Source: Candidatus Dormiibacterota bacterium
GTDB taxonomy: Bacteria; Chloroflexota; Dormibacteria; Dormibacterales; Dormibacteraceae
DNA: 41,259 nucleotides
Reading direction: 5' to 3'
NCBI GenBank assembly: GCA_036506195.1
Contig: DASXSD010000110.1
Location: 1-41,259, forward strand
In this document: in pieces, positions 6,753 through 34,737 of the stretch
Numbering within the stretch: position 1 is the first letter of the stretch
Layout: each line of letters starts with the position of its first letter
Program-made: the position numbers and the translations under genes
Notes under the pieces: model-generated
The model's database searches: none
Seen by the model: only the letters and a program-made list of their open reading frames with translations
Told to the model about the DNA's origin: nothing

Positions 6753-6830
6753 GGACACAAACCTCCTGCGCGGGAAAGGGGAGCCCACAGTCTATGGCGC
6801 GCCCGGCGGGACATGGAATGACGTAGGCGG

Positions 6831-8898: not shown

Positions 8899-8974
8899 TG
8901 GAGCGGGAGACGGGACTCGAACCCGCTACCTCAACCTTGGGAAGGTCGCGCTCTGCCAGGTGAGCTACTCCCGC
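8899..8974 (-). tRNA. tRNA-Gly (anticodon CCC), CCA encoded
   Basis: The reverse complement reads GCGGGAG-TA-GCTC-ACCTGGC-AGAGC-G-CGACC-TTCCCAA-GGTTG-AGGTA-GCGGG-TTCGAGT-CCCGT-CTCCCGC-T-CCA. It forms a complete cloverleaf with a 7-bp acceptor stem, a TTCGAGT T-loop and anticodon loop TT-CCC-AA. Confidence 0.93.
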
Positions 8975-11542: not shown

Positions 11543-13606
11543 ATGCGCGTGTTGGACGAACTAAATCAATTCGCTTACGACCTGCTGTGGACCTGGCAGC
11601 CGCGAATCGAGGCTCTGTTTCGCGCGCTCGACCCCGAGCTATGGAAATCGACCCGCGAAAATCCGGTGCTGCTCATCCAGCAGCTCGGCGAGGAAGGAGT
11701 CCAGAAGGCCTGCGAGCGAGAAGAGGTGCGCCAGGCCTTCGACAGCGCCCGGGCGGCTTACCGCGAGTACTACGACCGCAATCCGAGGTTCATGGACGCG
11801 CAGGCGCCGCTGGCCATCGCGTATTTCTCGCTCGAGTTCGGGCTCTCGGAGTGCTTGCCGATCTACTCGGGCGGCCTTGGGGTCCTGGCGGGCGACCACT
11901 TGAAGGCGACCAGCGACCTCGGGCTTCCCCTGGTCGCGGTCGGACTTCTCTACAAGCAGGGTTTCGGCAGGCAGGAGATCGACGCAAGCGGCCGCCAGGT
12001 CGAGGTCTACTTCGAGAACCGAGGCTCGGACCTGCCCGTGCGCAAGCTCGACGGAGTCGAGGTTGAGGCACCGATAGGCGCGCGCAACGTGCGCATTGCC
12101 GTCTGGCGCGCTCAGGTTGGACGGGTGCCCCTTTTCCTCCTCGACACCGACCTCGAGGCGAACCCCAACGACCTGCGCACCATCACCGACCGCCTCTACG
12201 TGCCGGAACCGGACCGACGACTGCGTCAGGAGATCGTGCTTGGGATCGGCGGTGTCCGGATGCTGCGCGCGCTGGGCCTCGACTCCGGCGTGTTCCACCT
12301 CAACGAGGGACACAGCTTCCTGTGTGCGATCGAGCGCATCCGCGAGCTTCGCGCCTCGCGCCAGATGACACTCGAGGAGGCGCGCCTTGTCGCACGCGCG
12401 GGCATCGTCTTCACGACACACACGCCGATCGCGGCGGGCAGCGACTACTTCGACGCCGGCCTGGTGTGGGATCTGCTCGGGCCGTATCTCACGCAGGTCG
12501 GCATCTCATTCGACCGCTTCATGGACCTCGGCCGCCAGCGGCCCGGTGACCCTCGCGAGCGGTTGTGCACGACGTACGCCGCGCTGCGGCTGGCCGACCA
12601 GTCTGTCGGTGTCAGCCGGCTCCACGGCGCTGTCTCGCGCCGGCTCTGGAAGGACGCGTGGAAAGGACTTCCGGACAGCCAGGTCCCGATCGGATCGGTG
12701 ACCAACGGCGTCCACATGCCGACGTGGGTCGCCCAGGACATCGCGGGCCTGCTCAGCCGGTACGTGGGCCCGGACTGGTGGGACCTGGATCCTGCCGACG
12801 GACGGTGGCATGCGGTCTACGAGATTCCCGCGGCCGAGCTGTGGGCGATCCATGGGGAGCTCAAACGGCGCCTGCTGGAGCTCGTCAAGGAGCGCACCGA
12901 GACTCCGCACGAGATCGACGTGAACGCGCTGACCATTGGGTTCGGCCGGCGATTCGCCCCCTACAAGCGCGCCAACCTTCTGCTCAGAGACCGCCCGCGG
13001 CTGACCAAGCTGCTTCGCAACTCGAGGCGGCCGGTGCAGATCCTGTTCGCGGGCAAGTCGCATCCCGCGGACCAGGCGGGCAAGGACATCGTCGCGGGCA
13101 TCGTCGCGCTGGCGCGCGAGGAGCCTCGCGTCATCTTTCTGAAGGACTACGACATCGCGCTGGCGCGCCACCTCGTCCAGGGTGCAGACGTGTGGTTGAA
13201 CAACCCGCGCCGCTTTCTGGAGGCGAGCGGCACGAGCGGGATGAAGGCCGGCGCGAACGGCGCCATCAACGTCAGTGTCCTCGACGGATGGTGGGACGAG
13301 GCGTACCGGCCGGAGTTCGGATGGGCGATCCCGTCGGGGGCCACCCTCGACCGGCAGGACATCGACGACGTCGCCGAGGCGGAGGGTCTGTACCGGCTGC
13401 TCGAGCGAGAGGTCGTGCCGCTCTATTACACGCGCGATGAGTCAGGCATCCCGCGACGCTGGGTCGAGATGATGAAAGCCTCGATGCGAAACGTCGTCAC
13501 ACAGTTCGCGGCGCGACGGATGGTGATCGACTACTTCAACAGCGCGTACGGGCCCGGCGCGCGCCGGGTCGAACAGCTTCGACTACTACCCGACTGGGGC
13601 GGCTAA
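11543..13606 (+). CDS. glgP: Alpha-glucan (glycogen/maltodextrin) phosphorylase, GT35, short bacterial type
   Basis: FSLEFGLSECLPIYSGGLGVLAGDHLKATSDLGLPLVAVGLLYKQGF and the PLP-lysine region EASGTSGMKAGANGA are diagnostic of alpha-glucan phosphorylases. Confidence 0.9.
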   Translation: MRVLDELNQFAYDLLWTWQPRIEALFRALDPELWKSTRENPVLLIQQLGEEGVQKACEREEVRQAFDSARAAYREYYDRNPRFMDAQAPLAIAYFSLEFGLSECLPIYSGGLGVLAGDHLKATSDLGLPLVAVGLLYKQGFGRQEIDASGRQVEVYFENRGSDLPVRKLDGVEVEAPIGARNVRIAVWRAQVGRVPLFLLDTDLEANPNDLRTITDRLYVPEPDRRLRQEIVLGIGGVRMLRALGLDSGVFHLNEGHSFLCAIERIRELRASRQMTLEEARLVARAGIVFTTHTPIAAGSDYFDAGLVWDLLGPYLTQVGISFDRFMDLGRQRPGDPRERLCTTYAALRLADQSVGVSRLHGAVSRRLWKDAWKGLPDSQVPIGSVTNGVHMPTWVAQDIAGLLSRYVGPDWWDLDPADGRWHAVYEIPAAELWAIHGELKRRLLELVKERTETPHEIDVNALTIGFGRRFAPYKRANLLLRDRPRLTKLLRNSRRPVQILFAGKSHPADQAGKDIVAGIVALAREEPRVIFLKDYDIALARHLVQGADVWLNNPRRFLEASGTSGMKAGANGAINVSVLDGWWDEAYRPEFGWAIPSGATLDRQDIDDVAEAEGLYRLLEREVVPLYYTRDESGIPRRWVEMMKASMRNVVTQFAARRMVIDYFNSAYGPGARRVEQLRLLPDWGG
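13583..13606 (+). repeat. 24-nt direct repeat, outer copy (last 7 codons plus stop of glgP)
   Basis: CTACTACCCGACTGGGGCGGCTAA recurs as CTACTGGCCGACTGGGGCGGCTGA at 13787..13810, matching at 21 of 24 positions. Confidence 0.85.
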
Positions 13607-13786
13607 ACCTATGAGAGGAAACCCGGATGGTTTCCTCTCATCGGCCGGGCGCTGGGCGCCGGGCCTGCTCTCCTCCCGGTATAAGGTTCGGTCTTGACCA
13701 AGTAGCCTTCCACCGTCAACGTCTGGCGACCGAAAGGCATAGTTGCGGCCGACGAGACGTCGGCCGCCAAAGCACGGCCTGGGAGC
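13607..13786 (+). repeat. ~180-nt structured non-coding element, copy E1 (candidate ncRNA or miniature mobile element)
   Basis: Alignable over its full length to the reverse complement of 17488..17666. It contains a perfect 13-bp hairpin (13611..13641: ATGAGAGGAAACC-CGGAT-GGTTTCCTCTCAT), a GC-rich middle hairpin, and a 10-bp hairpin GCGGCCGACG-AGA-CGTCGGCCGC. No conserved reading frame is shared with E2. Confidence 0.7.
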
Positions 13787-13810
13787 CTACTGGCCGACTG
13801 GGGCGGCTGA
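13787..13810 (+). repeat. 24-nt direct repeat, inner copy (its antisense encodes the last codons plus stop of GH57-GlgA)
   Basis: See 13583..13606. Read on the minus strand it gives ...SAAPVGQ-stop. Confidence 0.85.
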
Positions 13811-16800
13811 CGGTTTCTGTCCCGGCTCCGGCGCCTCGACGGGTCCCCGACGCTCGCGGTGGGCTCCGATCGCCGCCCTGTACAACTGCACGTACTTCAA
13901 GGCCGACCGCGACCAGGACACGTCCTCCTGCATGTCGTGCTGCACCAGCCACGCCCATACGTTGGGGTGACGGAACGTCTCGGCGGCCCTGACCACCGCA
14001 GCGAAAAACTGCCAGGGGTCGTACGGCCCAAACCGAAACCCGTTCCCCTTCTGCCCCACCGGGTCGTAGTCGCGGATCGTGTCCGCCAGGCCGCCTGTCG
14101 CACGAACAACGGGGATCGTTCCGTAGCGCAGCGCGATCAGCTGCGCGAGCCCGCCGGGCTCGAACCGCGATGGCATCCACAGCATGTCCGCCCCCGCGTA
14201 GATCCGCTGAGCCAGCGCCGCATCGAAACCAATCGCGACCGCTACCTGCCGCGGCAGCTCCGACGCCCAGCGCCGGAACATGTCCTCGTAGCGCCGGTCG
14301 CCGGTGCCGATGACCACGACCTGGAGTCCCAGCTGCAGGAGCTCGGGCATCGCCTGCTCGATCAGGTCGAAACCTTTCACGTCGTAGAACCGCGACACGA
14401 TTGCGCACAGCGGCTTGTTGGAGTCCTCGAGGCCGAGCTCGACCCGCAAAGCGGCGCGACACAAGGCCTTCGCCTGCGGCGCGTCGGCGGAGTAGTGATG
14501 CGGGATGTTGGGGTCGCGCGCGGGATCGAAGATCTCGTAGTCGATGCCGTTCAGGATCCCGTGCAGCTTGTGCGTGTTTTGCCGTAGCAGCTCGTCCAGG
14601 CCCTCCCCGTACTCCGGCGTCTGGATCTCCGACGCATACCGCTCGCTGACGGTGTTGATCACGTCGGCGAAGTGAATCCCGCGGCCGAGCACGTTGACCA
14701 CGTTGTCGAGGCCGGGGATGCCGAGCCGGATCAGTCCCCACTCCTGCAGACCGGCGAGCATCAGCGCTCCGAACCCGAAGACGCCCTGCGCGGAGAGGTT
14801 GTGGATCGTCAGCGTGGACGCGATGTCCGCGTACGCCTCTCCCTCGTAGACCTGCTCGAGCAGGTTCGGGATCAGTGCGCCGTACCAGTCATGGATGTGC
14901 ATCACGTCGGGGAAGAACTCCAGCGCGGGCAGCATCTCGAGCACGGCGCGGCAGAAATACACCGAGCGTGCATCGTCATCGCCAAAGCCGAACATGCCGT
15001 CGCGGTCGTACAGCTGCGGGCAGTCGACGAAGTAGACAGGGATCTCGCCGAGGCGGCCCTCGAAGATCGTGGCCGGCATCTTCTCCGCTCCGAGGGGGAC
15101 CGCCAGGTGGGTGACCACGGGATGCAGCTCGTAGCGTCCGATGTCGACCTGGCGGTACCTGGGGAGCACGACGCGCACGTCATGCCCCAGGTGCCGGAGC
15201 TCCTTGGAAAGCGCTGCCGCCACGTCGGAGACGCCTCCGAGCTTCGCGAATGGCGCCAGCTCGGCCGTGGCGACGAGAACCTTGAGAGGTGGCGCGTGCT
15301 CGACGTCGATCGCAGGTGCCTGCCCAGGGACGCGGAGGCCGAGCGCACCCGACGGTGGCACCACCTCGATGTCCTTCCCTTCCCTGCTGACGACCAGAGC
15401 AACCTCGAACGCGTCGCCGGGGTGTTTCCCCAGCTCACGGAATGGAATCGCGACCGCGAACGGATCGTCGACGTCCCATCGGCTTTCGGCGATGGCTCTG
15501 GACTGCGACTCGATGACACGGGCGACGGATACCGTCCCGCCCTGAGCGCGTGGCGTGATGCGAACCACATAAGCGGGCTCGAAGCCGAGCTCCGCCAGCG
15601 CGCTCTGAGGCAGCGGCAGATCGACGTCACCGTCGCCGTCGGTGGCGGGCGGTCCCCCGCAGTAGAGCCAGAACTCCATGTTCTGCGCCTCGAGGTCGGA
15701 CCCGGGCCGTGGTGAGTCGATGCGGAAGTAGACGTTCTGTTCGTCGTTGCCGTAGAAGACTCGCTCGACCACCCCGGCAGGTCGGTGCAGGGCGCCAAAC
15801 CCCGACCCCACGAGGTAGTAGCCGGCCTGTGCCCACGCCGGGTCGTGCCGTGACTGCGGACTGATCGAGGCCGCGGGAACCCCGCGCTCGGGCGTCGGTG
15901 CGCGTTTGATGATCGGCTGGTACAGACGGGCAGGCGCGCGAGCGCCCATCAGCTTGTAGACGTTGCGCAGATGCAGCCGGAACTGGTTGTCCCAGATGGG
16001 ATCCATGCCTGAGTCGTGCTTGCGACTGAACCACCAAAACCAGTCGCTGCCCTCGGTGATGAGGATCTCCCGCCATGCAAGCGCCGCCTGCTGCGAATCC
16101 TTGGGGCGCTGCTGCAACTGGGAGTCGAGCCAGTCGCGCGTCTCGGCGAGCAGGTCCCAGGCGACGTTGTGCTCCGGGTCGCCGATCCAGGTGTCGAGGC
16201 TCGCCCCGATCCAGCTTCCGGTGTGCAGGTGGTGGAGCTGCTGCTGCGGCGGGTGCTCGGCGAGAAAGTCCGAAACCGTCGTGGTCACCATGTCCGAGCT
16301 CGCTTCGAGCTCGGTGTAGACGGCGTTGAGGAAGTCGTGGCCATCGCGCGGATAGAACTCCCATGCGTTCTCGCCGTCGAGCGCGATCACGACCAGGAAA
16401 TCGCCATCGCCCTGCGCGTCACCGATGCGGCGCAGCCTTCCCATCAGGTCGCGGGCGGCGTCAACAGAAGACAGCCGCTGGTAGTCGAAGCCGATCACGT
16501 TCGAGAGCTGTGAGTCCCGGAAGACCATCGCCACCGAGCTGCCCTCACGTGCTATCCGCTTGGGCTGGTAGAGATGCTCGTCGCGATTGAAGTGGCCCTC
16601 CAGGGAGCGGGCCAGGACCTCCTCGTCGCTGATCATCCAGTCGAGCTTTGCCTTCTCGGCCAGTCCGATCACGGCCTCGCCGACCGCCATCTCCGACGGC
16701 CACATGCCCTTCGGCCGCCGGCCAAGCATCCGCTCGAACAGCCCCATGCCGAGCTCGATCTGGCGCTCGGCGTCCTCGCGGTGTGAGAAGTGGCGTTCGG

Positions 16801-17482
16801 GCAGCTGAATCTGGGGGTTGGCGCTGCGCGCGGAGTCGACGTGGCAGATCAGCGGAAGGATCGGATGGTAGTAGGGCGAGAAGGTGAGCTCGGCCTGCCC
16901 CCGGTCGGCAACCTCCCGATATTTGGGGATGACGCTGCGTATGCGTTCGAGCTGCGCGGCGAACAGGATCGACTTGTCCTCTTCGCTGAAATCGCGGTCC
17001 TTGCGCTTCAGCTCAGCCAGCCGTGGGTCGGATTCGACCCACACCGGGTCGCACCACGCGAGGTTGAACCACACCTGCACGTCGCGCATGTCCTCGTTGG
17101 TGAACTGCGCGTCCGCGGCGCGCGAGGCAAGCTCCAGATAGCGCGACGACTGCTGGACCCGGAGCGCCCGCGGCGACTCTCGCATCCAGCGCAGCACGAA
17201 CTCCCGCTCTTCCGCCGAGAGGTCGCCGGCCGCCCGCTTGCTCAAGTTCAGGAAGAGATCGACCGACTCCTCCTTGCCGTAGTCCTCGATCTGAGCGAGC
17301 AGCGAAGGCACGAGGTTGAAGGTGGCCCGGATCTTCGGGTAGCCGTCGAGCAGGGCGGGCATCTTGTAGTAGTCCTTGGCCGACCGCAGACGGACCCAGG
17401 GCAGCAGGTACGTGCTGGTGAGATCGTCCTTGTAGTAGGGCTGATGCATGTGCCAGATGAAGGCGATCTGCAGAGGTTTCAT
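13787..17482 (-). CDS. glgA: Fusion protein: N-terminal GH57 alpha-glucan-active domain plus C-terminal GT5 glycogen/starch synthase (GlgA)
   Basis: The N-terminus MKPLQIAFIWHMHQPYY, GMWPSEMAV and IALDGENAWE are GH57 signature regions. From about residue 745, KVLVATAELAPFAKLGGVSDVAAALSKELRHLGHDVRVVLPRY and the rest match GlgA. It is one uninterrupted 1231-codon frame. Confidence 0.85.
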   Translation of the reverse strand: MKPLQIAFIWHMHQPYYKDDLTSTYLLPWVRLRSAKDYYKMPALLDGYPKIRATFNLVPSLLAQIEDYGKEESVDLFLNLSKRAAGDLSAEEREFVLRWMRESPRALRVQQSSRYLELASRAADAQFTNEDMRDVQVWFNLAWCDPVWVESDPRLAELKRKDRDFSEEDKSILFAAQLERIRSVIPKYREVADRGQAELTFSPYYHPILPLICHVDSARSANPQIQLPERHFSHREDAERQIELGMGLFERMLGRRPKGMWPSEMAVGEAVIGLAEKAKLDWMISDEEVLARSLEGHFNRDEHLYQPKRIAREGSSVAMVFRDSQLSNVIGFDYQRLSSVDAARDLMGRLRRIGDAQGDGDFLVVIALDGENAWEFYPRDGHDFLNAVYTELEASSDMVTTTVSDFLAEHPPQQQLHHLHTGSWIGASLDTWIGDPEHNVAWDLLAETRDWLDSQLQQRPKDSQQAALAWREILITEGSDWFWWFSRKHDSGMDPIWDNQFRLHLRNVYKLMGARAPARLYQPIIKRAPTPERGVPAASISPQSRHDPAWAQAGYYLVGSGFGALHRPAGVVERVFYGNDEQNVYFRIDSPRPGSDLEAQNMEFWLYCGGPPATDGDGDVDLPLPQSALAELGFEPAYVVRITPRAQGGTVSVARVIESQSRAIAESRWDVDDPFAVAIPFRELGKHPGDAFEVALVVSREGKDIEVVPPSGALGLRVPGQAPAIDVEHAPPLKVLVATAELAPFAKLGGVSDVAAALSKELRHLGHDVRVVLPRYRQVDIGRYELHPVVTHLAVPLGAEKMPATIFEGRLGEIPVYFVDCPQLYDRDGMFGFGDDDARSVYFCRAVLEMLPALEFFPDVMHIHDWYGALIPNLLEQVYEGEAYADIASTLTIHNLSAQGVFGFGALMLAGLQEWGLIRLGIPGLDNVVNVLGRGIHFADVINTVSERYASEIQTPEYGEGLDELLRQNTHKLHGILNGIDYEIFDPARDPNIPHHYSADAPQAKALCRAALRVELGLEDSNKPLCAIVSRFYDVKGFDLIEQAMPELLQLGLQVVVIGTGDRRYEDMFRRWASELPRQVAVAIGFDAALAQRIYAGADMLWMPSRFEPGGLAQLIALRYGTIPVVRATGGLADTIRDYDPVGQKGNGFRFGPYDPWQFFAAVVRAAETFRHPNVWAWLVQHDMQEDVSWSRSALKYVQLYRAAIGAHRERRGPVEAPEPGQKPSAAPVGQ

Positions 17483-17487
17483 GTGGC
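17440..17487 (-). repeat. 48-nt direct repeat, gene-proximal copy (5 nt upstream plus first 43 nt of GH57-glgA)
   Basis: The sense strand reads GCCACATGAAACCTCTGCAGATCGCCTTCATCTGGCACATGCATCAGC. It is identical to 17667..17714 except for one synonymous position (17471 C versus 17698 A on the plus strand). Confidence 0.9.
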
Positions 17488-17709
17488 GAAGCTGATCTCG
17501 TGGCTATGGCGGCCGAGTTCACCTCGGCCGCAACCCGCATCCCAATTGCGTCGCCCAGCGCCGCATGGGGACACTAATTCGTTAATCCCAACCCCGGGAA
17601 GGTGAGCAGGGCCGCGAGCCGGGCGAGCGGCCCGATGAGCGGAAACCGGAGGTTTCCGCTCATTTAGCTGATGCATGTGCCAGATGAAGGCGATCTGAAG
17701 AGGTTTCAT
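17479..17709 (-). CDS. 76-codon relay/leader ORF created by the duplicated GH57 start and read through element E2
   Basis: It starts at the duplicated ATG (17709), 5 nt after the stop of the upstream glycosyltransferase gene. It has no in-frame stop across E2, and its TGA overlaps the ATG of GH57-glgA as ATGA (17479..17482). Beyond the first 14 codons the sequence is arginine/glycine-rich and not protein-like. Confidence 0.3.
   Translation of the reverse strand: MKPLQIAFIWHMHQLNERKPPVSAHRAARPARGPAHLPGVGINELVSPCGAGRRNWDAGCGRGELGRHSHEISFAT
17488..17666 (-). repeat. ~180-nt structured non-coding element, copy E2 (inverted relative to E1)
   Basis: The reverse complement aligns with E1 block by block: ATGAG.GGAAACC / GGTTTCC.CTCATCGG, CTGCTC.CCT.CCCGG, CTGG.CGAC, GTTGCGGCCGA....TCGGCCGCCA.AGC.AC. 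Its hairpins are 17635..17663 (13 bp) and GCGGCCGAG-GTGAA-CTCGGCCGC. Confidence 0.7.
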
Positions 17710-17714
17710 GTGGC
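17667..17714 (-). repeat. 48-nt direct repeat, distal copy (immediately follows the stop codon of the upstream glycosyltransferase gene)
   Basis: See 17440..17487. Confidence 0.9.
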
Positions 17715-19052
17715 TCAGCTCAATGATCGCAGTGTCCGTATCCGGCTCACCCGTTTGGGCGGCGGAGGGGTCGGCAGCTTCACAGCCTGGCGCTCGGCGG
17801 CGTATTCCACCCTCTGCAGCAGCTGCTCGATCACCTTCTCCCAGACGTAGTCCCGGGCGGTGATCCGACCACGCCTGCGGAGATGTGCGGCGATGCGCGG
17901 CCTCTCCTTCAAGATCGAGAGCTCCGTCACGATCTCGAGCGGGTCGTCAGTCTCCAGGACCAGGGCGTTGCGATACGGCTCGGCGTAGTCCTCGCCGGTC
18001 GAGCCGGTGACGGCGATTCCACCGGCGGCCATGACCTCGAGGCCGACCAGTCCGAACGGCTCGTGGCCGGAGTTCGCGAGCACGGCGTCGGACGCCGCGT
18101 AGAGGACACGGACGAGCGACTCGTCGATGAAGCTGGTCACATTTACCAGGTCGACCCCATTGGCATCGCGCAGCACCGCAGCCAGGCTGGGCGCGTCGGC
18201 GGGTGCCTTCACGCTGCCCACCGCGAGTCCCAGGTGTTCGGCGACGCCCATCACCTCGGCGCCGTGCGGCTCGCGCCCTCCGCGGACGACGAGCTTCACC
18301 TGGCCGCCCCGACGTTTGAGCTCGGCGGCGGCAGTGACCGCCATGAGCCAGCGCTTGTCGGGATCGAAGCGACCGATCTTGAACCAGAGATGGCCGGCGC
18401 CGGCGGCCGCCCTGACTTCACCAACCGCCTGGTGATCCGGCTCGGCGAGCGAGTCGGCTGGAATTCCGTTCGGGATCACGATCGGGTTCTGGGCCCACTC
18501 CCACATGCGGAACTTCATGTAGCGGCTGACGGTCGTCACTGTGCTCGCGAGGTTCAGCGGGGCCCAATCGATGCGGTTGAAGCCATACGTGTTGTTGGCG
18601 TTCCACAGCATGACGACACGGTTGCGCAGGCCTCGGTAATACAGCGTGTCCGAGATGAGCCGCATCGACCATGACGTGTGCCACTCCTCGCCGAGCACGA
18701 CCACGTGCTTGCCCGCTTCGACCGCCGGCGCGATCACCTTGTCGATGAGGCTCGAGGGGAGGCTGTAGTTCCAGTCTCGGATCTTTCCTTCCTCGTCGTC
18801 GTAGACGCCACCGCGGTGCTGGGCGGAGATCCACTGACACCAGCGCCTGAGCTGCAGCCGGCCTCCCTCGAGCGCCTCCTCACCCGGGAGGTCGGGGTCG
18901 CCACAGAAATAGAGGTATGTCGGATAGCCCAGCCGCGCCAGCGAGCGCGACAGCCCCTTGACCCTGACGCCGAGCCCACCGGCCTGGCTGAAGACGTCCG
19001 GCCCTTCGAAGCTGAGAATGACGAAGACAGTCCGGGCCGGGTCCAGATTCAA
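17715..19052 (-). CDS. GT-B fold retaining glycosyltransferase (GT4/GT5-like, glycogen-synthase-like N-terminus)
   Basis: VFVILSFEGPDVFSQAGGLGVRVKGLSRSLARLGY resembles the N-terminal G-rich loop of archaeal-type glycogen synthases and GT4 enzymes, and the C-terminal half has the E-x7-E-like region (HEPFGLVGLEVMAAG). The track ORF extends to 19469 but there overlaps the IMPase gene in another frame. TTG at 19052 overlaps the IMPase stop as TTGA. Confidence 0.75.
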   Translation of the reverse strand: MNLDPARTVFVILSFEGPDVFSQAGGLGVRVKGLSRSLARLGYPTYLYFCGDPDLPGEEALEGGRLQLRRWCQWISAQHRGGVYDDEEGKIRDWNYSLPSSLIDKVIAPAVEAGKHVVVLGEEWHTSWSMRLISDTLYYRGLRNRVVMLWNANNTYGFNRIDWAPLNLASTVTTVSRYMKFRMWEWAQNPIVIPNGIPADSLAEPDHQAVGEVRAAAGAGHLWFKIGRFDPDKRWLMAVTAAAELKRRGGQVKLVVRGGREPHGAEVMGVAEHLGLAVGSVKAPADAPSLAAVLRDANGVDLVNVTSFIDESLVRVLYAASDAVLANSGHEPFGLVGLEVMAAGGIAVTGSTGEDYAEPYRNALVLETDDPLEIVTELSILKERPRIAAHLRRRGRITARDYVWEKVIEQLLQRVEYAAERQAVKLPTPPPPKRVSRIRTLRSLS

Positions 19053-19810
19053 CGCGATGCCTTGAGGATCTGCATCGCCTCTCGATGGAGCTCCGGGCTC
19101 GAGGCACACAGGAGCGTCGAGCTGGTTTCGAGGTTGCAACGCTGCCTGGCGATCGGGTCGCCTTCGACTGTCGTCGCCACGCCGCCGGTTTCGGAGAGGA
19201 TGAGCAAGCTCGCCGCCATGTCGAAGACACGCACCGGCGCCGGCGCGCAGAACACGTCGAAAGCGCCGGCGCTCGTGAGCGCGATCGAGATCGCCATCGA
19301 GCCCAGTATGCGGACCTTCGCCGCTCGCTCGACCAGCGGCCGCGCGAGCTGCAGATTGCGCGGATTGCTCTCTAGACCGAGAAGCTGGATCCGACTGGCG
19401 AGACCGCGCCTCGCGGCGACGAGCGGCTCTCCCGCATGCCACGCGCCCTGTTCTCGCACCGCGGTCCATGTCTCGCCGGTGTTCAGGCTGAGCACGAAGC
19501 CGGCGTACACATCCGAGACGAGTGGCCCGTCGAGGACGGCGAGCATAAGGCCGAAAAGCGGCACGCCCTGCTTGGCGTTGAGGCTGCCGTCGACGGGGTC
19601 GACGAGAATCAGCGGATAGTCGGCGCCGAAGTTCCGGTAGCCGGCCTCTTCGGAGAGGACCGAGAACGTCTCTCCCCGCTCACCAAGCCCGGCCAGCTCG
19701 CTGAAGACGACCGCCTCCGCGGCGCGGTCGAGCTCCATCGTCGTGTCGCCACCCGCGCCAACGCTCAGCTGCACGCGGCCTGCCTCGGTGCCCGACAGCG
19801 GCAGCACCAC
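19049..19810 (-). CDS. Inositol monophosphatase / fructose-1,6-bisphosphatase family phosphatase
   Basis: LILVDPVDGSLNA (the DPxDG metal-binding motif) and VFDMAASLLIL (WD-like motif) are present. 253 aa. Confidence 0.85.
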   Translation of the reverse strand: MVLPLSGTEAGRVQLSVGAGGDTTMELDRAAEAVVFSELAGLGERGETFSVLSEEAGYRNFGADYPLILVDPVDGSLNAKQGVPLFGLMLAVLDGPLVSDVYAGFVLSLNTGETWTAVREQGAWHAGEPLVAARRGLASRIQLLGLESNPRNLQLARPLVERAAKVRILGSMAISIALTSAGAFDVFCAPAPVRVFDMAASLLILSETGGVATTVEGDPIARQRCNLETSSTLLCASSPELHREAMQILKASR

Positions 19811-30520: not shown

Positions 30521-32471
30521 CGCCCAAATTTATCCTGTACACGGCGTACCCGCCATCGTCGTAGACCTTGGTCGCGTGCTCGTCCCAGTAGGCGCGACTG
30601 CCACCGCGCGGCACCTCCTGCGGTCCGATCACCACGTAGTCGATGCCGTACTTGCGCGCAAGCGTCAGTGCGGACTCATCCCCGCTCAAGATGAGCTTGT
30701 CGTCCTCCCCCTTCTGCACGTAGTCGGCGAGGCCATATGTCCACAGCCAGCCCGGGTATCCGATCAGCTCGCGCCGCCCCGCCAGCGTCGGGATCGGGCT
30801 GTTGTGCTCGTCGGCCACGGCAAACATGGCGTCCGGACTTGTGTTGTGGCGCACCCAGTCCGCGACTTTGAGCCCGCCCGAATCCGTGAACTGGTAAGCG
30901 CTCACGCTGAAGTCCGAAGCCCGCGCAAGGTCGAGCGCTCCCGACAGACCGAGCAGCACCATCGACACGACGGCGACGACCGCGGTCAGCGGGCCGCGCC
31001 GGAGCATCGTGGCGAGCAGCGCGCCCACAAGCATGCTGCCCAGCAGGAGCCAGAAGACGAAGAACTTCGTGTTGTCCCAGATCCACGGCTGTAGGACGAC
31101 CAAGTTCGGGACCGCAAACCAGAGCCACATCGGGGCAAACCAGGTCGGAAACGCGGTGGGAAAGGAGCGCAGGGCAACGTGCGCAGTGAGCAGGAGCGGA
31201 AGTAGCAGCGACGTGTTCCAGATCCAGAACAGCAGCCACTCCAGCTCAAACATCACAGGGCCGTCGCGCAGCAAGTCACCGGGCGACAGCCAACCCACCT
31301 GGAGGCAGAATCCACCGATCGATGTCCCGACGCCACAGACCGCAGTGTTGTCGGGAGGCCACATCCAGACGAGGATCGGCACGCCGACCACAAGCGCCGG
31401 CACAAAGTAGGCGAGCCACTCCACGCGGCGGTTGAAGAGCGCCCAGAAGGCCGCGAGCGCGACGACTGTCCCGTACGCATGGACGTGGAACAACGGCATC
31501 ACCGCAGCGACGAGCCCGGCGAATAGAAACGGACGCCACGCCAGTCGCCGGCGGACGGCGAGCCAAAGCACGATCAGCACGATCAGCGTCAGGCTGAAGC
31601 CGAACAGCGTCGAACGCTGCGGCACCAGGTAGGCGAGCACCGGGTTCAGCCACTGCAGGTTGACCGCGCGATTCAGCGTGTACTCGCTGGGGAGGTGCAC
31701 CAACACGCTCAGACCAAACCGCTGAACGTCACCCAGCAGGTAGACAAAACCAAGCCCGCCGCTGAGGAGAAAGACGAAGACGGCAATCGCCGATGCCACC
31801 CGGCTGGCGGTGAACCTCAAGGCTGTGAGGTAGAGAACGGCCGGAAACGCGACGCCGAGCATTGCGCTCGTCGCCGTCAGTGCCTCGGTCAGCCGAGCTC
31901 CCAACGGGACGAGGTCCGCGGCGAGGAAGTCGATCATGAAGGGATAGCCCAGGTGGTGACCCGGGTCGATCGGGAACTCGGGTGGAAAGTTGTGCCCGTA
32001 GGCGAATGAGCCGGCAAAGCTCAGGTGCGCCGCCCAGTCGCCCCAGATGTTGATGTAGCCGGCGTAGAGACCGTTCGGCGTGTACACGTAGGCCTGGTGC
32101 AGGAGATGGACGGTCCATGCTGCGCAGGCCGCGAAAACCAGGACCAGCGGCCAGGGATGCGTCCCGCCGCGAGGCGATGCTGACCACCGCCCGCGGGCAT
32201 CTGCCCAATCGGCAACGAGCTGCGCCCGACCGAAAAAGATGCCCATCACGCCCGCCGTCACAGTGACCGCCAGGCCGACCAGCACTGTCAGCAAGGTGAC
32301 GTCGCGGACGAGCAGTGCCGGCACAAACGTGGCGACTGAAACCGCCATCGCGCCCATCACGGCACCGAACACGACTCGCTCCTCGAACGCGAAAGCGATG
32401 CCGGAGAGGTACGTGATTCCAAAACCCGCGGCGGCGCTCGCGGCCAGGAATCCAGTTAGAGCTAGTTCCAA
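30513..32471 (-). CDS. Polytopic membrane protein, putative GT-C-type glycosyltransferase with a C-terminal extracytoplasmic domain
   Basis: More than 12 predicted TM segments followed by a soluble ~130-aa tail. The function is assigned only from topology and the neighbouring GT39 gene. The ATG at 32537 would overlap the upstream gene by 76 nt; an in-frame TTG at 32471 overlaps it by only 10 nt. Confidence 0.55.
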   Translation of the reverse strand: MELALTGFLAASAAAGFGITYLSGIAFAFEERVVFGAVMGAMAVSVATFVPALLVRDVTLLTVLVGLAVTVTAGVMGIFFGRAQLVADWADARGRWSASPRGGTHPWPLVLVFAACAAWTVHLLHQAYVYTPNGLYAGYINIWGDWAAHLSFAGSFAYGHNFPPEFPIDPGHHLGYPFMIDFLAADLVPLGARLTEALTATSAMLGVAFPAVLYLTALRFTASRVASAIAVFVFLLSGGLGFVYLLGDVQRFGLSVLVHLPSEYTLNRAVNLQWLNPVLAYLVPQRSTLFGFSLTLIVLIVLWLAVRRRLAWRPFLFAGLVAAVMPLFHVHAYGTVVALAAFWALFNRRVEWLAYFVPALVVGVPILVWMWPPDNTAVCGVGTSIGGFCLQVGWLSPGDLLRDGPVMFELEWLLFWIWNTSLLLPLLLTAHVALRSFPTAFPTWFAPMWLWFAVPNLVVLQPWIWDNTKFFVFWLLLGSMLVGALLATMLRRGPLTAVVAVVSMVLLGLSGALDLARASDFSVSAYQFTDSGGLKVADWVRHNTSPDAMFAVADEHNSPIPTLAGRRELIGYPGWLWTYGLADYVQKGEDDKLILSGDESALTLARKYGIDYVVIGPQEVPRGGSRAYWDEHATKVYDDGGYAVYRINLGDA

Positions 32472-34132
32472 CAGAAGATCTGCGGCTGCGACGGCGGCAG
32501 GTCGCGGCAGTTGACAAGCCAGATCTTCGGTCCCCACGGCGGCGTCCCTGAGCTCTCAAACCAGGCCGGGCGAGAGATGGGCACGGCCGTCCAGACCGGG
32601 TAGAAGTAGCCAAAGAAAAGTATGGCGGTCGCGAGGTGCAAGGCCACGAGCGCTTCCCGGTTTGGCGAGCGCAACTTCCCCGCGAGATACACGAGCACGA
32701 AGGCGAGCGCCAGGATCATGAAAATCAGCCCGCCGAACATGTGGTACATGAACAGCACGCGCGTGATCGGAAACCAGGGCGCGTACTGGCTGACGAACCC
32801 GATAAGGATCAACGCTGCTGGAAAACTTCGATGGCGGACGATGAAGTAAGGAAGGGCGGCGACGCAAGGCAGGCTTGTCCACCAGATCCACGGATTGCCG
32901 AGGTTTGACATGCGAGCCCAGATCGGCTGTCCGGTAAATACATCGGTGCCCAGCCCGTCGTACTGGGCGTAGTAGAGGACCGGTCGAGCGAGAAACGGCC
33001 ACGACCACGCGGGTGAGCCGTAGGGATGCGTAGCGGTCAGAAGGCGGTGATAGACGATCGTCTGGAGGTGGTAGTGGATGAGGTCGTCCAGGTGGTGGAA
33101 CTGACCGCGCGCGAAGAACGGGTACCACGATGCCACGTAGATGCCGAGCGGGATCACCATCAATGCGAGCACGCCGATTGATAGATAGCGAGGCCAGAAC
33201 AAGGCCGACACGCTGAATACCGGCGTGCCCCATTCGATCTTGAACGCGTGCAGCGCGGCCCTGACCGCCAAAAAGAAGACGATCGTCGCCCAGGCAGCAA
33301 GCACGATCCATTTCGCGGCGATGCCGATGCCGAGAACGGTGCCGAGTGCGACCAGCGAGAGCATCGAGCTGTTGAACGTTCGGCTCTGGATGTGGACCAG
33401 GAACAGGAAGTACGCGGCCAGGATGAAGAAGATCGGGAAGATGTCGATCATCCCGATGCGCGACTGGACGAAGAACATCCCGTCGAAGCACGCGAGCGTC
33501 GCCGCGGCGATCGCGAACAACCGATTGGGCCAGAGGCGCCGGGCGAAGAGAAACATCATCGGGATGCACAGCGTTCCGAAGATGCAGGCGGCGATGCGCC
33601 AGCCGAACGTGTTGAATCCCAGGTCGATGTAATCGCCGGAAGCCCCCTGGAAGTGCGCCCGGAACCATCCATATCCCCACATGCCCGCCGCGATGAGCTC
33701 TTTCGCCAGCGGCGGTTCGGGGTCGAAGTAGTTGTACTGGCAGAGCGCCGTGGTCGTCCGGCACTTCTCAATGCCCTTGACATCGTCATAGGCATCGACC
33801 GGGAAATAGATCTCGTCGAACACCTGCCCGTGCGGGGGCTGCAGCACACCATTGGCGTCCTCGTACCCGCGGTTGAACGGGTAGGCGAGTCCGCAGATGG
33901 TGCCGAGGTCGCCGGCAGGATTGACCGGCGTGCTCGAAACGCAGTTGGTGATCCATGGGGCCTGAAACGGATGGACGAAGAAATCGGGAAGGATCGGACT
34001 GAAGAAGCGAATCGCAAATGCGACCACGGTCAGGACGAGGATCGCGATCAGATCGATTCGGTCGAAATAGTTCCTCGCGGCCGTCGGAGTCAGTGGCGCG
34101 TCCTGGATTCCGACACCGCGAGGCCGGATCAC
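32462..34132 (-). CDS. GT39 family protein O-mannosyltransferase-like (PMT/ArnT-type) glycosyltransferase
   Basis: The first-loop motif HGQVFDEIYFPVDAYD (acidic DE motif of PMTs), a multi-TM core and the conserved C-terminal YHM..G region are present. GTG at 34132 overlaps the upstream stop as GTGA. The track N-terminal extension to 34573 is shadow sequence overlapping the previous gene. Confidence 0.8.
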   Translation of the reverse strand: MIRPRGVGIQDAPLTPTAARNYFDRIDLIAILVLTVVAFAIRFFSPILPDFFVHPFQAPWITNCVSSTPVNPAGDLGTICGLAYPFNRGYEDANGVLQPPHGQVFDEIYFPVDAYDDVKGIEKCRTTTALCQYNYFDPEPPLAKELIAAGMWGYGWFRAHFQGASGDYIDLGFNTFGWRIAACIFGTLCIPMMFLFARRLWPNRLFAIAAATLACFDGMFFVQSRIGMIDIFPIFFILAAYFLFLVHIQSRTFNSSMLSLVALGTVLGIGIAAKWIVLAAWATIVFFLAVRAALHAFKIEWGTPVFSVSALFWPRYLSIGVLALMVIPLGIYVASWYPFFARGQFHHLDDLIHYHLQTIVYHRLLTATHPYGSPAWSWPFLARPVLYYAQYDGLGTDVFTGQPIWARMSNLGNPWIWWTSLPCVAALPYFIVRHRSFPAALILIGFVSQYAPWFPITRVLFMYHMFGGLIFMILALAFVLVYLAGKLRSPNREALVALHLATAILFFGYFYPVWTAVPISRPAWFESSGTPPWGPKIWLVNCRDLPPSQPQIFCWN

Positions 34133-34737
34133 CGTCGTCGTTTGCGTCGCCTGGCTCCACCCTGGTTCTGCCCGAGACGCTCGGGCAGGTGGGCGCTGAT
34201 CTCCCACACGACTGTGTCTGCATCCGGAACCGGGACGGCGATCGTGTCCTCGTACATGAGTCGGGACCGAAAAATTCCGAGGCGCTTTTTGATCGACGCA
34301 AGCTCGGATTCGTCGCCGCGAACCTTGACGAAAACGGCAGGCTTGTCGATGTGCTGTTTCATGATCGGCGCGATCATCCGGCTGCGCCGATCCTGGAAGT
34401 GCTGACGGAGCGGCAGCGCCTTGACCCACCGGATCGAGTCGTAGTCGATAACCACATTCGAGAACATGCTCGAGATCCGGACTCCCTCCTCGAGCACCTG
34501 CAGGTTGCTGCGCCATCGGTACAGGAGAATCGCGCCGCCCAGGAGCAGTCCCGTCGGGATGTAGACCAGCCACACGGCAAACGCCGGCGAGAAGAGCTGG
34601 CCCTGGTAGATGGCGATCCCGGTGGCGACCACGCCCGCCAGCAGGAGCAATCCTGCGAAGAAGCGCTGCTGCAGCCAGAGGTGGTGGGCATACAGGATCT
34701 GATGTCGCGAAGGGCGCGAGGCGGCTTCGGTGCTCAA
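34129..34737 (-). CDS. Small membrane protein: two TM helices plus a cytoplasmic domain (bPH-like topology, by inference)
   Basis: FFAGLLLLAGVVATGIAIY and AFAVWLVYIPTGLLLGGAILLY are followed by a ~120-aa soluble part and a basic tail. TTG at 34737 is the first start after the glpK stop. The track start 34977 overlaps glpK. Confidence 0.5.
   Translation of the reverse strand: MSTEAASRPSRHQILYAHHLWLQQRFFAGLLLLAGVVATGIAIYQGQLFSPAFAVWLVYIPTGLLLGGAILLYRWRSNLQVLEEGVRISSMFSNVVIDYDSIRWVKALPLRQHFQDRRSRMIAPIMKQHIDKPAVFVKVRGDESELASIKKRLGIFRSRLMYEDTIAVPVPDADTVVWEISAHLPERLGQNQGGARRRKRRR

Follow-up and report, generated by a model that had tools for sequence, protein, structure and literature searches.

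The window analyzed here, a 41,259-nt stretch of a Candidatus Dormibacterota contig (DASXSD010000110.1), carries a GlgP-like gene (positions 11543 to 13606), a GH57-GlgA gene (13787 to 17482), and a GT4 gene whose stop codon lies at 17715 to 17717. One copy of a structured element, E1, lies between the first two genes and a second, E2, lies between the last two. Candidatus Dormibacterota is an uncultured soil phylum known from metagenomes only, and to our knowledge nothing has been reported on its repeat content. The original prediction placed two diverged, inverted copies of ~180 nt here, and pairwise alignment confirms them at 73% column identity over ~180 nt. All of the shared sequence blocks that it named are found in both copies, and it read the compensatory changes correctly: GAGAGG/CCTCTC (E1) versus GAGCGG/CCGCTC (E2) in hairpin H1 and GCCGAC..GTCGGC (E1) versus GCCGAG..CTCGGC (E2) in hairpin H3. 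The locations stand, but the exact ends do not and were trimmed to those given below, for E2 because positions 17488 to 17493 are part of a duplicated GH57 gene start. The units and their parts are as follows.

13605 to 13786, plus strand: E1, complete unit (covariance-model score, 158 bits; RNA fold z = -4.1)
13611 to 13641, plus strand: E1 hairpin H1, 13 bp, ATGAGAGGAAACC-CGGAT-GGTTTCCTCTCAT
13643 to 13665, plus strand: E1 hairpin H2, GGCCGGGCGC-TGG-GCGCCGGGCC
13668 to 13677, plus strand: E1 pyrimidine strand CTCTCCTCCC (evidence: three-way covariation table, mutual-information scan, register control)
13745 to 13767, plus strand: E1 hairpin H3, GCGGCCGACG-AGA-CGTCGGCCGC
17494 to 17666, minus strand: E2, complete unit (covariance-model score, 126 bits; RNA fold z = -4.0)
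17635 to 17663, minus strand: E2 hairpin H1, ATGAGCGGAAACC-TCC-GGTTTCCGCTCAT
17609 to 17633, minus strand: E2 hairpin H2, GGGCCGC...GCGGCCC
17597 to 17606, minus strand: E2 pyrimidine strand CTCACCTTCC, the A of which matches the C-G pair at H1 layer 6
17509 to 17531, minus strand: E2 hairpin H3, GCGGCCGAG-GTGAA-CTCGGCCGC

Both units fold better than 200 of 200 shuffles, and H1 and H3 of E1 and E2 are the only perfect hairpins of ≥10 bp in the whole window. As had been anticipated, no known RNA family fits the element. Only a tRNA passes the Rfam (release 15) gathering thresholds across the window, and at E values up to 10 the best match between 13500 and 17800 is sX13, which scores 20.6 bits where 50 are required. 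In line with the absence of a transposase, integrase, or reverse transcriptase noted in the original prediction, no domain of these kinds was detected in the 12 window proteins scanned against Pfam. An exact-sequence look-up of the GH57-GlgA protein returned no record. Neither strand of E1 or E2 carries a U-tract terminator; a terminator role is therefore rejected for both, and an explanation of the orientation bias by antisense H3 plus TTTGT is unsupported for these copies.

A dispersed repeat family with a fixed architecture

E1 and E2 belong to a large and hitherto undescribed family of repeats, rich in hairpins, that is found in the soil bacteria of Candidatus Dormibacterota. E1 matches unrelated loci with blastn E values as low as 1e-38, nhmmer recovered 74 near-full copies, and a sequence-pattern scan found at least 118 loci, overwhelmingly in Dormibacterota MAGs. 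A covariance model, the check envisaged in the original prediction, identified ~105 copies in 730 kb of Candidatus Dormibacterota DNA. Copies were sampled at one to three per genome; their median pairwise identity is ~50%, with stems nonetheless intact, and there is no sign of a recent burst, since no pair from different loci exceeds 89% identity. Most members are solitary or in tandem rather than paired around genes, head-to-tail arrays occur, and truncated copies have lost 5', 3', or internal parts with no 5'-truncation bias. Four matches in viral contigs comprise the bare hairpin only, not the whole element, and we found no description of the family in the literature on Dormibacterota repeats, stop-codon repeats, or triplexes.

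The unit is 150 to 220 nt long and ordered 5'-H1-H2-pyrimidine strand-variable middle-H3-short tail-3', where H1 is a 13-bp palindrome (ATGAGNGGAAACC/GGTTTCCNCTCAT), H2 a hypervariable GC hairpin, and H3 a GC hairpin. Its 5' end, (T)ATGAG..., and 3' end, ...CCACGCTGG(TT), are unrelated to each other, form no terminal inverted repeats, and are ragged (5' linker of 0 to 6 nt, variable 3' tail). Ends of this kind are expected neither from a classical transposase nor from an HUH enzyme of the RAYT type, and neither makes long duplications. Copies that share an insertion site can carry entirely different H2 hairpins, as though modules had been swapped. At the H2 apex, 44 of ~64 copies have T-N-C, which gives a GNA triloop on the opposite strand; this apex is the reverse complement of that of type-2 H3, a form seen in many relatives, centered on GCGAAGC and ending GGCCTAC (TAC follows the H3 stem in 16 copies). 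E1 and E2 have type-1 H3, followed by CAAAG and CATAG, respectively, with no GTAG. On the sense strand, H3 loops are purine-rich and GNRA-like.

Covariation of the stems and a triple-helix code

Selection on a folded nucleic acid rather than a peptide had been proposed from the two window copies, and the family agrees: loop indels break the reading frame while the stems covary. Among 34 full-length relatives, 97.5% of stem cells are paired, with changes on both sides in 16 of 29 pairs, and the covariation score of 0.25 compares with 0.03 to 0.05 in slid controls and is reached by 0 of 500 shuffles. H2 is the most strongly covarying helix in the family. A protein-coding reading of the unit is rejected, as indels in the loops put different copies out of frame with one another and locus L058 does not conserve the frame that runs through E2. 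Wobble tolerance, by which RNA-level selection was assessed, was not seen; G·U (13) is no commoner than A·C (17) among 2,616 stem cells, which argues against constraint on RNA alone. This lack of wobble pairs favors single-stranded DNA, which the original prediction had offered as one possible folded molecule.

The pyrimidine strand mirrors H1 and covaries with it in a triple-helix code; in E1, it is the mirror of the 3' arm of H1, in parallel orientation to the purine arm. Conformity to the code is 82% in the proposed register versus at most 53% in other parallel and 60% in antiparallel registers. At layer 6, the counts are 62 A-T/T, 22 C-G/A, and 2 G-C/C (Fisher p = 7e-16), and in a mutual-information scan the signal between pyrimidine strand and H1 lies within the top 17 of ~15,000 column pairs. 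The sequences thus carry the pyrimidine-motif signature of a third strand parallel to the purine strand, on the U·A-U/C+·G-C code, that covaries with the duplex. This three-way covariation fits a nine-layer triplex, of which we propose the E1 pyrimidine strand as the putative third strand. Two other partners for this strand were considered and rejected. Watson-Crick pairing with the H1 purine arm has no consistent register (antiparallel conformity of ≤60%), and the minimum-free-energy pairing with the 3' tail of E1 is not general across the family because most tails are not purine-rich.

Placement at stop codons

Of 77 copies, 58 have their H1 end (ATGAG) at -4 to +6 nt relative to a stop codon on the same strand, and in 9 of those 58 the TGA within ATGAG is itself the stop codon. 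Upstream coding, judged by a local test on GC3 and stop-free frames, is in the sense of the unit for 64 copies and antisense for 12 (p = 1e-9). The rule is also true between convergent genes, where spacers are long, and several genomes retain a unit at corresponding gene ends (frr-like ...EVMEV*, ...MWGH*, and ...HIL*). In the window, E1 begins 4 nt past the TAA stop (13604 to 13606) of the GlgP-like gene, and each unit directly follows the gene on its own 5' side and has the same orientation as that gene. Around a gene with one convergent and one codirectional neighbor, this placement rule alone yields the inverted layout of E1 and E2.

Sense orientation, stop adjacency, and retention at the same gene ends are also compatible with a working RNA element, and a DNA enzyme would have no obvious means of finding stop codons in a given reading frame.

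Duplicated flanks and turnover at orthologous loci

A separate pair of direct repeats, made up of local gene sequence, brackets each window copy, a feature that the original prediction missed.

13583 to 13606, plus strand: E1 left duplicate, 24 nt, CTACTACCCGACTGGGGCGGCTAA, encoding the C-terminus and stop of the GlgP-like gene (11543 to 13606)
13787 to 13810, plus strand: E1 right duplicate, CTACTGGCCGACTGGGGCGGCTGA, whose reverse complement encodes the GH57-GlgA C-terminus and its TAG stop (gene at 13787 to 17482)
17667 to 17720, minus strand: E2 upstream duplicate, 54 nt, comprising the GT4 gene stop (TGA, 17715 to 17717), 5 nt, and ATG plus 14 codons MKPLQIAFIWHMHQ
17440 to 17493, minus strand: E2 downstream duplicate, with the working ATG (17480 to 17482) and first 14 codons of the GH57-GlgA gene

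The insertion point of E2 is past codon 14 of the GH57-GlgA gene. The spare start upstream of E2 opens a 76-codon frame through the unit that ends at TGA 17479 to 17481, overlapping the real start; no conservation of this frame was seen in L058 or at the epimerase locus. At E1, the two-copy arrangement is kept in all syntenic relatives, whatever insert lies between, so the duplicate may predate the element there, and its origin by insertion of this element is correspondingly weakened.

Across the family, duplications of target DNA span about 12 to 75 nt and regenerate gene ends or starts. Strong flank-to-flank matches occur at 17 of 94 copies (4 of these being merely neighboring copies in tandem arrays) versus 0.3% of controls, and perfect or near-perfect duplications are present in L048 (27 nt), L038 (36 nt), and L108 (33 nt). 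Spare and working gene starts differ mostly synonymously (e.g., 8 of 9 differences in L040), and for the spare copies that precede E2-type insertions it is apparently the peptide that is conserved. One possibility is that the unit is “translationally transparent,” with ribosomes at spare starts contributing to the product by coupling, shunting, or bypass.

Orthologous loci record presence/absence polymorphism and repeated independent insertion, some sites being empty or scarred and others showing a different insertion point or the opposite orientation. A comparison of orthologous glgP-glgA-GT loci, also envisaged in the original prediction, showed that the E2 junction is empty in many close relatives; L122, L123, and L130 have a pristine ATGA stop/start overlap, and L125 can be set against L146 and L073 as empty versus occupied. 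Insertions at this junction occupy three other positions (L128/L133, L144, and L146), with a reversed unit in L147, an H1 deletion in L119, and scars only in L121, L145, L150, and L153. In relatives, the E1 spacer contains either the element, in one orientation or the other, or different small repeats. L119 has a copy at the E2 site and REP-like palindromes at the E1 site, L123 has a copy at the E1 site and an empty E2 site, and L082 and L147 are reversed, while the gene order glgP, GH57-glgA is kept with or without units.

Origin and possible function of the units

On balance, we consider the family to be probably a nonautonomous mobile DNA repeat of the REP/BIME or MITE kind. E1 and E2 are separate acquisitions, each of which would have been copied in trans by an enzyme whose gene is absent from the window and that may recognize the folded single strand, hairpins plus intramolecular triplex. 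We infer that units enter at widely staggered breaks. Their H1 end adjoins the stop codon of a same-strand gene or provides that stop. The long duplication would rebuild the gene end, ribosome-binding site, or start codon otherwise lost to insertion, which would explain how copies survive where genes overlap or are tightly coupled. Units would be cotranscribed with the upstream gene, and effects on the mRNA may arise as a side effect. No autonomous partner or candidate enzyme was found by the Pfam scan of the 12 window proteins or by tblastn of the fetched loci with RayT. A more far-reaching version, which we regard as possible but rather unlikely, is a new kind of mobile element in which the insertion machinery or selection is keyed to stop codons or stop-start junctions, long staggered duplications are made, and a triplex-clasped hairpin is recognized.

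The unit might be mainly a working cis-acting RNA module in 3' untranslated regions or between cistrons, with dispersal secondary; a hairpin-triplex at the stop codon could block 3' exonucleases, modulate termination or ribosome rescue, or preserve translational coupling across the insert. We hold this tentatively as a minority reading. The stop-codon rule with its 64:12 sense orientation and the recurrence at the same gene ends in several genomes speak for it, yet ~12 copies are antisense to their neighbors and the element is dispensable at the window's own locus, where close relatives show empty sites, H1 deletion, and scars. Strong fold z-scores (-4.1 and -4.0) and GNRA-like, purine-rich H3 loops on the sense strand are likewise set against stems with no wobble tolerance (G·U 13 versus A·C 17), the missing U-tract terminator on either strand of E1 and E2, and the weakness at neutral pH of a pyrimidine-motif RNA triplex with five C+ layers. 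The spare-start frame that crosses E2 to end on the ATGA of the true start, and the mostly synonymous spare starts (8 of 9 in L040), are also in its favor, but the through-frame is not conserved in L058 or at the epimerase locus.

It is improbable that the units are SINE-like retroposed copies of a stable RNA, made by a reverse transcriptase encoded elsewhere. Target-primed synthesis would give variable target duplications and ragged ends, as seen in the 12- to 75-nt range and the variable 5' linkers and 3' tails, and the sense orientation relative to transcription and head-to-tail arrays would also be in keeping. However, the 12 window proteins contain no reverse-transcriptase domain (Pfam) and none was noticed near copies, there is no A-rich or other simple tail, truncations are 5', 3', and internal without 5' bias, and wobble pairs are absent though an RNA template would tolerate them. 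We know of no bacterial precedent for such retroposition.

The composite-transposon or invertible-segment geometry of the original prediction, with E1 and E2 as joint ends carrying the GH57-GlgA gene, fails and is highly improbable. The two are indeed mutually inverted and bracket one gene, but their flanking duplications are separate, not the one shared duplication expected if they formed a single unit; their sites are occupied, empty, or reversed independently in relatives (L119, L123, L082, and L147), around a constant glgP, GH57-glgA order; and both are independent members of a dispersed family of ~105 copies, mostly solitary or tandem. Chance similarity or an assembly artifact is practically inconceivable, given that independent assemblies, produced in many studies, contain ~105 homologous copies that show covariation and a conserved architecture.

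The covariance model is ready for annotating tens of copies per Dormibacterota genome, where gene calling is otherwise misled by the spare starts, false upstream open reading frames (ORFs), and altered C-termini that the repeats create. A mechanistic basis for the placement would imply a so far unknown insertion pathway; under a selective one, the family would serve as a natural experiment in what is tolerated at bacterial gene junctions.

Comparison with known systems

Among the closest known systems are the REP/BIME/REPIN repeats, which comprise GTAG- and CGTC-tagged families (PMC3733652) and are associated with RAYTs (PMC2817692). Tagged REPs are palindromes of 20 to 40 bp that carry an unpaired GTAG or CGTC at one end. 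Shared with these are high-copy GC-rich hairpins downstream of coding regions, between codirectional and convergent genes, frequent tandem or mosaic arrays, cotranscription, and perfect Watson-Crick stems; the placement of tagged REPs (downstream of ORFs, unidirectional or convergent, often in inverted dimers or arrays) is also that found here. Read on its opposite strand, one H3 type (GGCCTGGCGAAGCCAGGCC-TAC) resembles the GTAG-tagged REPs in having GTAG plus a palindrome (PMC3733652), and H2 and H3 together resemble an inverted pair of such hairpins. Unlike REPs (20 to 40 nt), the 150- to 220-nt unit has a fixed polar order of five modules, a mirror-repeat triplex-type strand, and a 5' end within 6 nt of a stop codon, and E1 and E2 carry the untagged H3 type. 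Furthermore, REP/RAYT (HUH) and IS200/IS605-type insertion makes no target duplication, whereas many copies of the element have one of 12 to 75 nt. A tblastn search of 1.39 Mb of loci with an approximate E. coli RayT query gave a sole match, in the non-Dormibacterota locus L170. In E. coli, stop-proximal REPs have reportedly been studied in connection with ribosome stalling.

MITEs (ERIC, Correia/NEMIS, RUP, and BOX) are likewise nonautonomous, structured, interspersed repeats of 100 to 200 nt, transcribed with neighboring genes and with orientation-dependent effects. The unit has neither of the classical MITE hallmarks, terminal inverted repeats and a fixed short duplication (2 to 10 bp in MITEs, long and variable at 12 to 75 nt here), and differs in its ragged ends and strong polarity to the upstream gene's stop codon.

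In ENE-type RNA triplexes (MALAT1/PAN), an A-rich 3' tail is clamped in a U-rich internal loop. The covariation pattern has in common with these and with H-DNA at mirror repeats a homopurine-homopyrimidine helix, a third strand on the U·A-U/C+·G-C code, ~9 layers, and a third strand that is a mirror repeat of the pyrimidine arm. Unlike in ENEs, the element's candidate third strand is internal, after the second hairpin, and C-rich. The putative triplex may form in RNA, in DNA, or, with a purine motif, on the complementary strand. Three features are not known together elsewhere: stop-codon-precise polar placement, long variable duplications that spare overlapping or coupled genes, and three-way covariation resembling a nine-layer triplex.

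Inserts flanked by long, variable direct repeats of the target are also known from restriction-modification units, which insert with no transposase (Nobusato 2000/Furuta 2010, PMC2853133), and from IS1549/IS1634, with direct repeats of 8 to 514 bp (PMC2266710). In those cases the insert is a gene cassette of kilobase size or a full insertion sequence with transposase and inverted ends, whereas the element is a 180-nt noncoding, structured, multicopy unit. The restriction-modification repeats frequently overlap gene 3' ends (PMC2853133), and neither precedent has a known mechanism. Their defining pattern (repeats of >30 bp, single at the empty site, no mobility gene in the insert) recurs here, with E2 (54 nt), L038 (36 nt), and L108 (33 nt) above the 30-bp cutoff and E1 (24 nt) and L048 (27 nt) below it. 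[quoted passage not shown]

Two diverged copies of one element

Pairwise alignment of E1 with reverse-complemented E2 confirmed the two as genuine diverged copies of one element, and the compensatory changes that the original prediction had quoted for hairpins 1 and 3 (H1 and H3) were correct on re-checking. H1 and H3 of E1 and E2 are the only perfect hairpins of ≥10 bp in the 41-kb window, and each copy folded better than 200/200 shuffled sequences (z = −4.1 for E1 and −4.0 for E2); neither strand of either copy scored as a terminator. The flanking genes are as first named, and no transposase, integrase, or reverse-transcriptase domain was found among the 12 window proteins scanned against Pfam. 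Overlooked earlier was a direct repeat of local gene sequence around each copy, separate for E1 and E2.

Features of the E1-E2 region
11543..13606, plus strand, GlgP-like phosphorylase
13605-13786, plus strand, E1
13583-13606 and 13787-13810, direct repeat flanking E1
13787..17482, minus strand, GH57+GlgA fusion
17494-17666, minus strand, E2
17667-17720 and 17440-17493, direct repeat flanking E2
17715..19469, minus strand, GT4 glycosyltransferase

Elsewhere in the window, an 840-aa fusion of an NTP-transferase/hexapeptide domain to phosphoglucomutase (8992-11514, minus strand) lies directly upstream of a tRNA gene (8902-8974, minus strand). The plus strand has a strong A-over-T skew (0.28 to 0.39) at 31001-33000 and at 30513-32537, the latter occupied on the minus strand by a 674-aa open reading frame that lacks a Pfam match and adjoins a PMT-family mannosyltransferase gene (32462..34573).

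A repeat family with covarying stems

A scan with H1 plus its 3′ flank, taking one genome per species, returned at least 118 loci; among the matches listed, nearly all were Candidatus Dormibacterota metagenome-assembled genomes (MAGs) or older “Chloroflexi CF_” soil MAGs. Near-full copies found by nhmmer numbered 74, and a covariance model trained on 34 copies recovered about 105 in 730 kb, its other, weak matches being the palindromic H1 read on the reverse strand. In agreement with the first reading, which could match the element to no RNA family, Rfam gave no match, and literature searches turned up no published description. Copies share a median pairwise identity of about 50%, with a maximum of 89% between different loci. 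The shared architecture of the unit, 5′ to 3′, is as follows.

Architecture of the repeat unit
H1, 13 bp, ATGAGNGGAAACC / GGTTTCCNCTCAT
H2, 7-11 bp, hypervariable, paired in every case
Pyrimidine strand, CTGCTC[T/A]CC[T/C]TCC, after H2
Variable middle, between the pyrimidine strand and H3, including a small hairpin whose loop is of GCNACGC type
H3, 9-11 GC-rich pairs, then a 10-20-nt tail

In the 34-sequence alignment, 97.5% of stem cells are paired and 16 of 29 pairs have changed on both sides. The covariation score, 0.25 compared with 0.03 to 0.05 for slid partners, was reached by 0/500 shuffles.

Subfamilies include one without H2, one whose H1 is an AAGG version, and one of 217-220 nt with an extended H2. 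In the last (loci L048, L082, L123, L128/L133, and L147 among those fetched from other genomes and metagenomes), the extension is a branched module of about 40 nt, TCAACGGCCG...CGGCCGGATTC. Several otherwise different units carry a nested insert of about 37-40 nt (GCGCGCCAGGCGCGGTCAGG..CCTATTGATCG) at the same point in the H1 3′ arm (L054 at about 6330-6370, both units of L059, L056, L015, L016, L069, L087 at 6609-6793, and L111), which could represent a sub-element or mark a subfamily.

A few contigs with full units carry non-Dormibacterota phylum labels: Eisenbacteria (L009/L062/L114), Acidoferrum (L037/L063), Verrucomicrobiia (L013/L109/L113), and the archaeon Nitrosotalea (L089/L105). These contigs are presumed to be mis-binned; several have orthologs among the Dormibacterota loci, so the units might help to flag mis-binning.

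Placement and target duplications

On the H1 side, the adjoining upstream sequence is coding in the sense of the unit in 64 copies and in the antisense direction in 12 (p = 1e-9). A sense reading-frame end could be called for 77 copies, and in 58 of them the ATGAG at the H1 end of the unit starts between −4 and +6 nt relative to the last base of the stop codon; the stop is the TGA inside ATGAG in 9 of these 58, and a TAA completed by the A of ATGAG in 4. The same rule holds between convergent genes with spacers of tens of bases, so it is not due to lack of room. Most exceptions, at 22 to 80 nt from the stop, carry long flanking duplications. Units form head-to-tail arrays in L054, L098, L040, and L003.

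When both flanks of each copy were compared (n = 94), strong matches were found for 17 copies, versus 0.3% of mismatched flank pairs used as a control. Four of the 17 are merely neighboring units in arrays; the other 13 are duplicated unique target DNA.

Target duplications
L038, 36 nt, perfect
L108, 33 nt, 32/33 identical
L048, 27 nt, perfect, covering upstream stop, spacer, and downstream TTG start
L056, 54 nt
L073, 74 nt
E2, 54 nt
E1, 24 nt

Either the 3′ end of the upstream gene is duplicated, up to and including its stop, or, at coupled genes, the unit lies a few codons into the downstream gene, with the duplication extending back as far as the stop of the upstream gene. Unit ends are ragged. 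At old orthologous insertions the duplications have decayed but are still present (for example, ACATACTGAA versus ATAAACTGAA).

Occupancy of the two sites in relatives

Scanning metagenomes with the GH57-GlgA protein returned about 37 orthologous loci. Comparison at the E2 junction revealed empty sites in several relatives, including L122, L123, and L130, in which the upstream stop overlaps the GH57 start as ATGA. Insertion after codon 14 is common to the window, L058, L119, and L192, the unit in L119 having lost H1. L119, the locus most closely related to the window (91% protein identity), has a clean H1 deletion between short TCA repeats (about 2380-2490) and keeps both duplicated gene starts, each TTG. 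The unit of L144 lies two bases further along. A stretch of L144 just before the working GH57 start (about 2470-2500) is similar to the 3′ end of the GT4-type neighbor, yet the gene upstream is actually a second GH57-like gene, which hints at past rearrangement of the junction. In L146 and L073, where the upstream gene is a different one, the unit lies within its 3′ end and has a duplication of 27 to 74 nt; L125 is the empty comparator. Units lie immediately 3′ of the stop in L128 and L133, the unit is reversed in L147, and only a fragment of the spare start is left in L121/L150, L145, and L153.

At the E1 site, all syntenic relatives have two copies of a segment of about 22 nt that encodes the two convergent gene ends, and the insert between them varies: the window and L123 have this element there, L082 has it reversed, and L133 has other inverted repeats. 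Thus, this element alone cannot account for the E1 duplication, and the spacer serves as a landing site for small repeats. REP-like palindromes, GGGATAGTCCGGACTATCCC, occupy the site in L119 (6188-6290) and L134; a tandem unit of roughly 48 nt, GGATAGTCGCGACTAACGCGGGTCTTGG, is present in 3.5 copies in L121/L150 (about 6203-6400); and inverted repeats containing CGTGCGGAAT lie downstream of the GH57-GlgA stop in L120 and L126. All three families are absent from the window.

The original reading of E1 and E2 as a composite-transposon-like or invertible-segment-like pair is rejected, since occupancy of both sites in relatives rules out their acting together.

Spare gene starts

Insertions of the E2 type leave a spare copy of the gene start upstream, and the differences between spare and working copies are mostly synonymous.

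Spare starts
L013, 6560-7000
L062, 4140-4580
L040, 3880-4520
L059, 250-900
Window, 17667-17709

At an epimerase locus orthologous in four genomes, the spare copy retains MKVLVTGAAG-L, including the conserved Leu at codon 11, despite many third-position differences. Over 17 codons in L040, 8 of 9 differences are synonymous; the two adjacent units there are nearly identical over the first ~100 aligned positions and 88% identical overall. Three amino-acid changes that distinguish the species are present in both copies in the window and in L058. The trend is opposite in L192 (2 nonsynonymous versus 1 synonymous difference). The pattern suggests peptide-level constraint on a segment expected to be useless. 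Gene conversion together with large population size could explain it; a more exotic reading is that the spare start is used in translation. In the window, the spare ATG opens a 76-codon frame across the whole of E2 (17479-17709, minus strand), and its terminal TGA shares bases with the genuine GH57-GlgA start (ATGA). Such stop/start overlap is a classic coupling arrangement. The through-frame is not conserved in L058 or elsewhere.

The selected fold

Across 2,616 stem cells, G·U pairs number 13 and A·C mismatches 17. That G·U is not favored over A·C argues against an RNA-only constraint, which would be expected to tolerate G·U far better. The H2 apex loop is T-N-C in 44 of about 64 copies, equivalent to G-N-A on the opposite strand, and is the reverse complement of the apex of one H3 type, which has a GCGAAGC center and a GGCCTAC end. 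Read on the opposite strand, that H3 type is GTAG plus a palindrome, like GTAG-tagged REPs (PMC3733652). The pair counts and apex features point to DNA hairpins or to constraint on both strands.

The pyrimidine strand, a putative third strand, mirrors the 3′ arm of H1 and runs alongside the purine arm in parallel orientation. Duplex and third base vary jointly at layer 6 (A-T/T, n = 62; C-G/A, n = 22; G-C/C, n = 2), and at layer 7 the A-T variants have T as third base in 3/3. Of about 15,000 column pairs in an all-against-all mutual-information scan, these H1-third-strand pairs were among the 17 highest-ranking, together with other non-helix pairs (e.g., 18-72 and 22-72) that follow subfamily and obey no pairing rule. 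Conformity to a T·A-T / C·G-C / A·C-G code is 82% in the proposed register, compared with ≤53% in any other parallel and ≤60% in any antiparallel register. Covarying mirror repeats are what a putative intramolecular triple helix predicts; a purine-motif triplex on the complementary strand would fit the same covariation equally well.

A probable mobile repeat or a possible working RNA

The best-supported account is that the units are mobile repeats, non-autonomous and akin to REP/BIME or MITE elements. A live rival, compatible with mobility, is that the unit is a working RNA that may, for example, protect mRNA or affect termination or coupling. In E. coli, REPs located up to about 15 nt from a stop codon reportedly cause ribosome stalling. 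Under the mobile-repeat account, the folded single strand of the unit would be the form recognized, and insertion would duplicate target DNA over a long and variable length. Long, variable duplications without a known mechanism have been described for restriction-modification units (PMC2853133) and for IS1549/IS1634 (PMC2266710).
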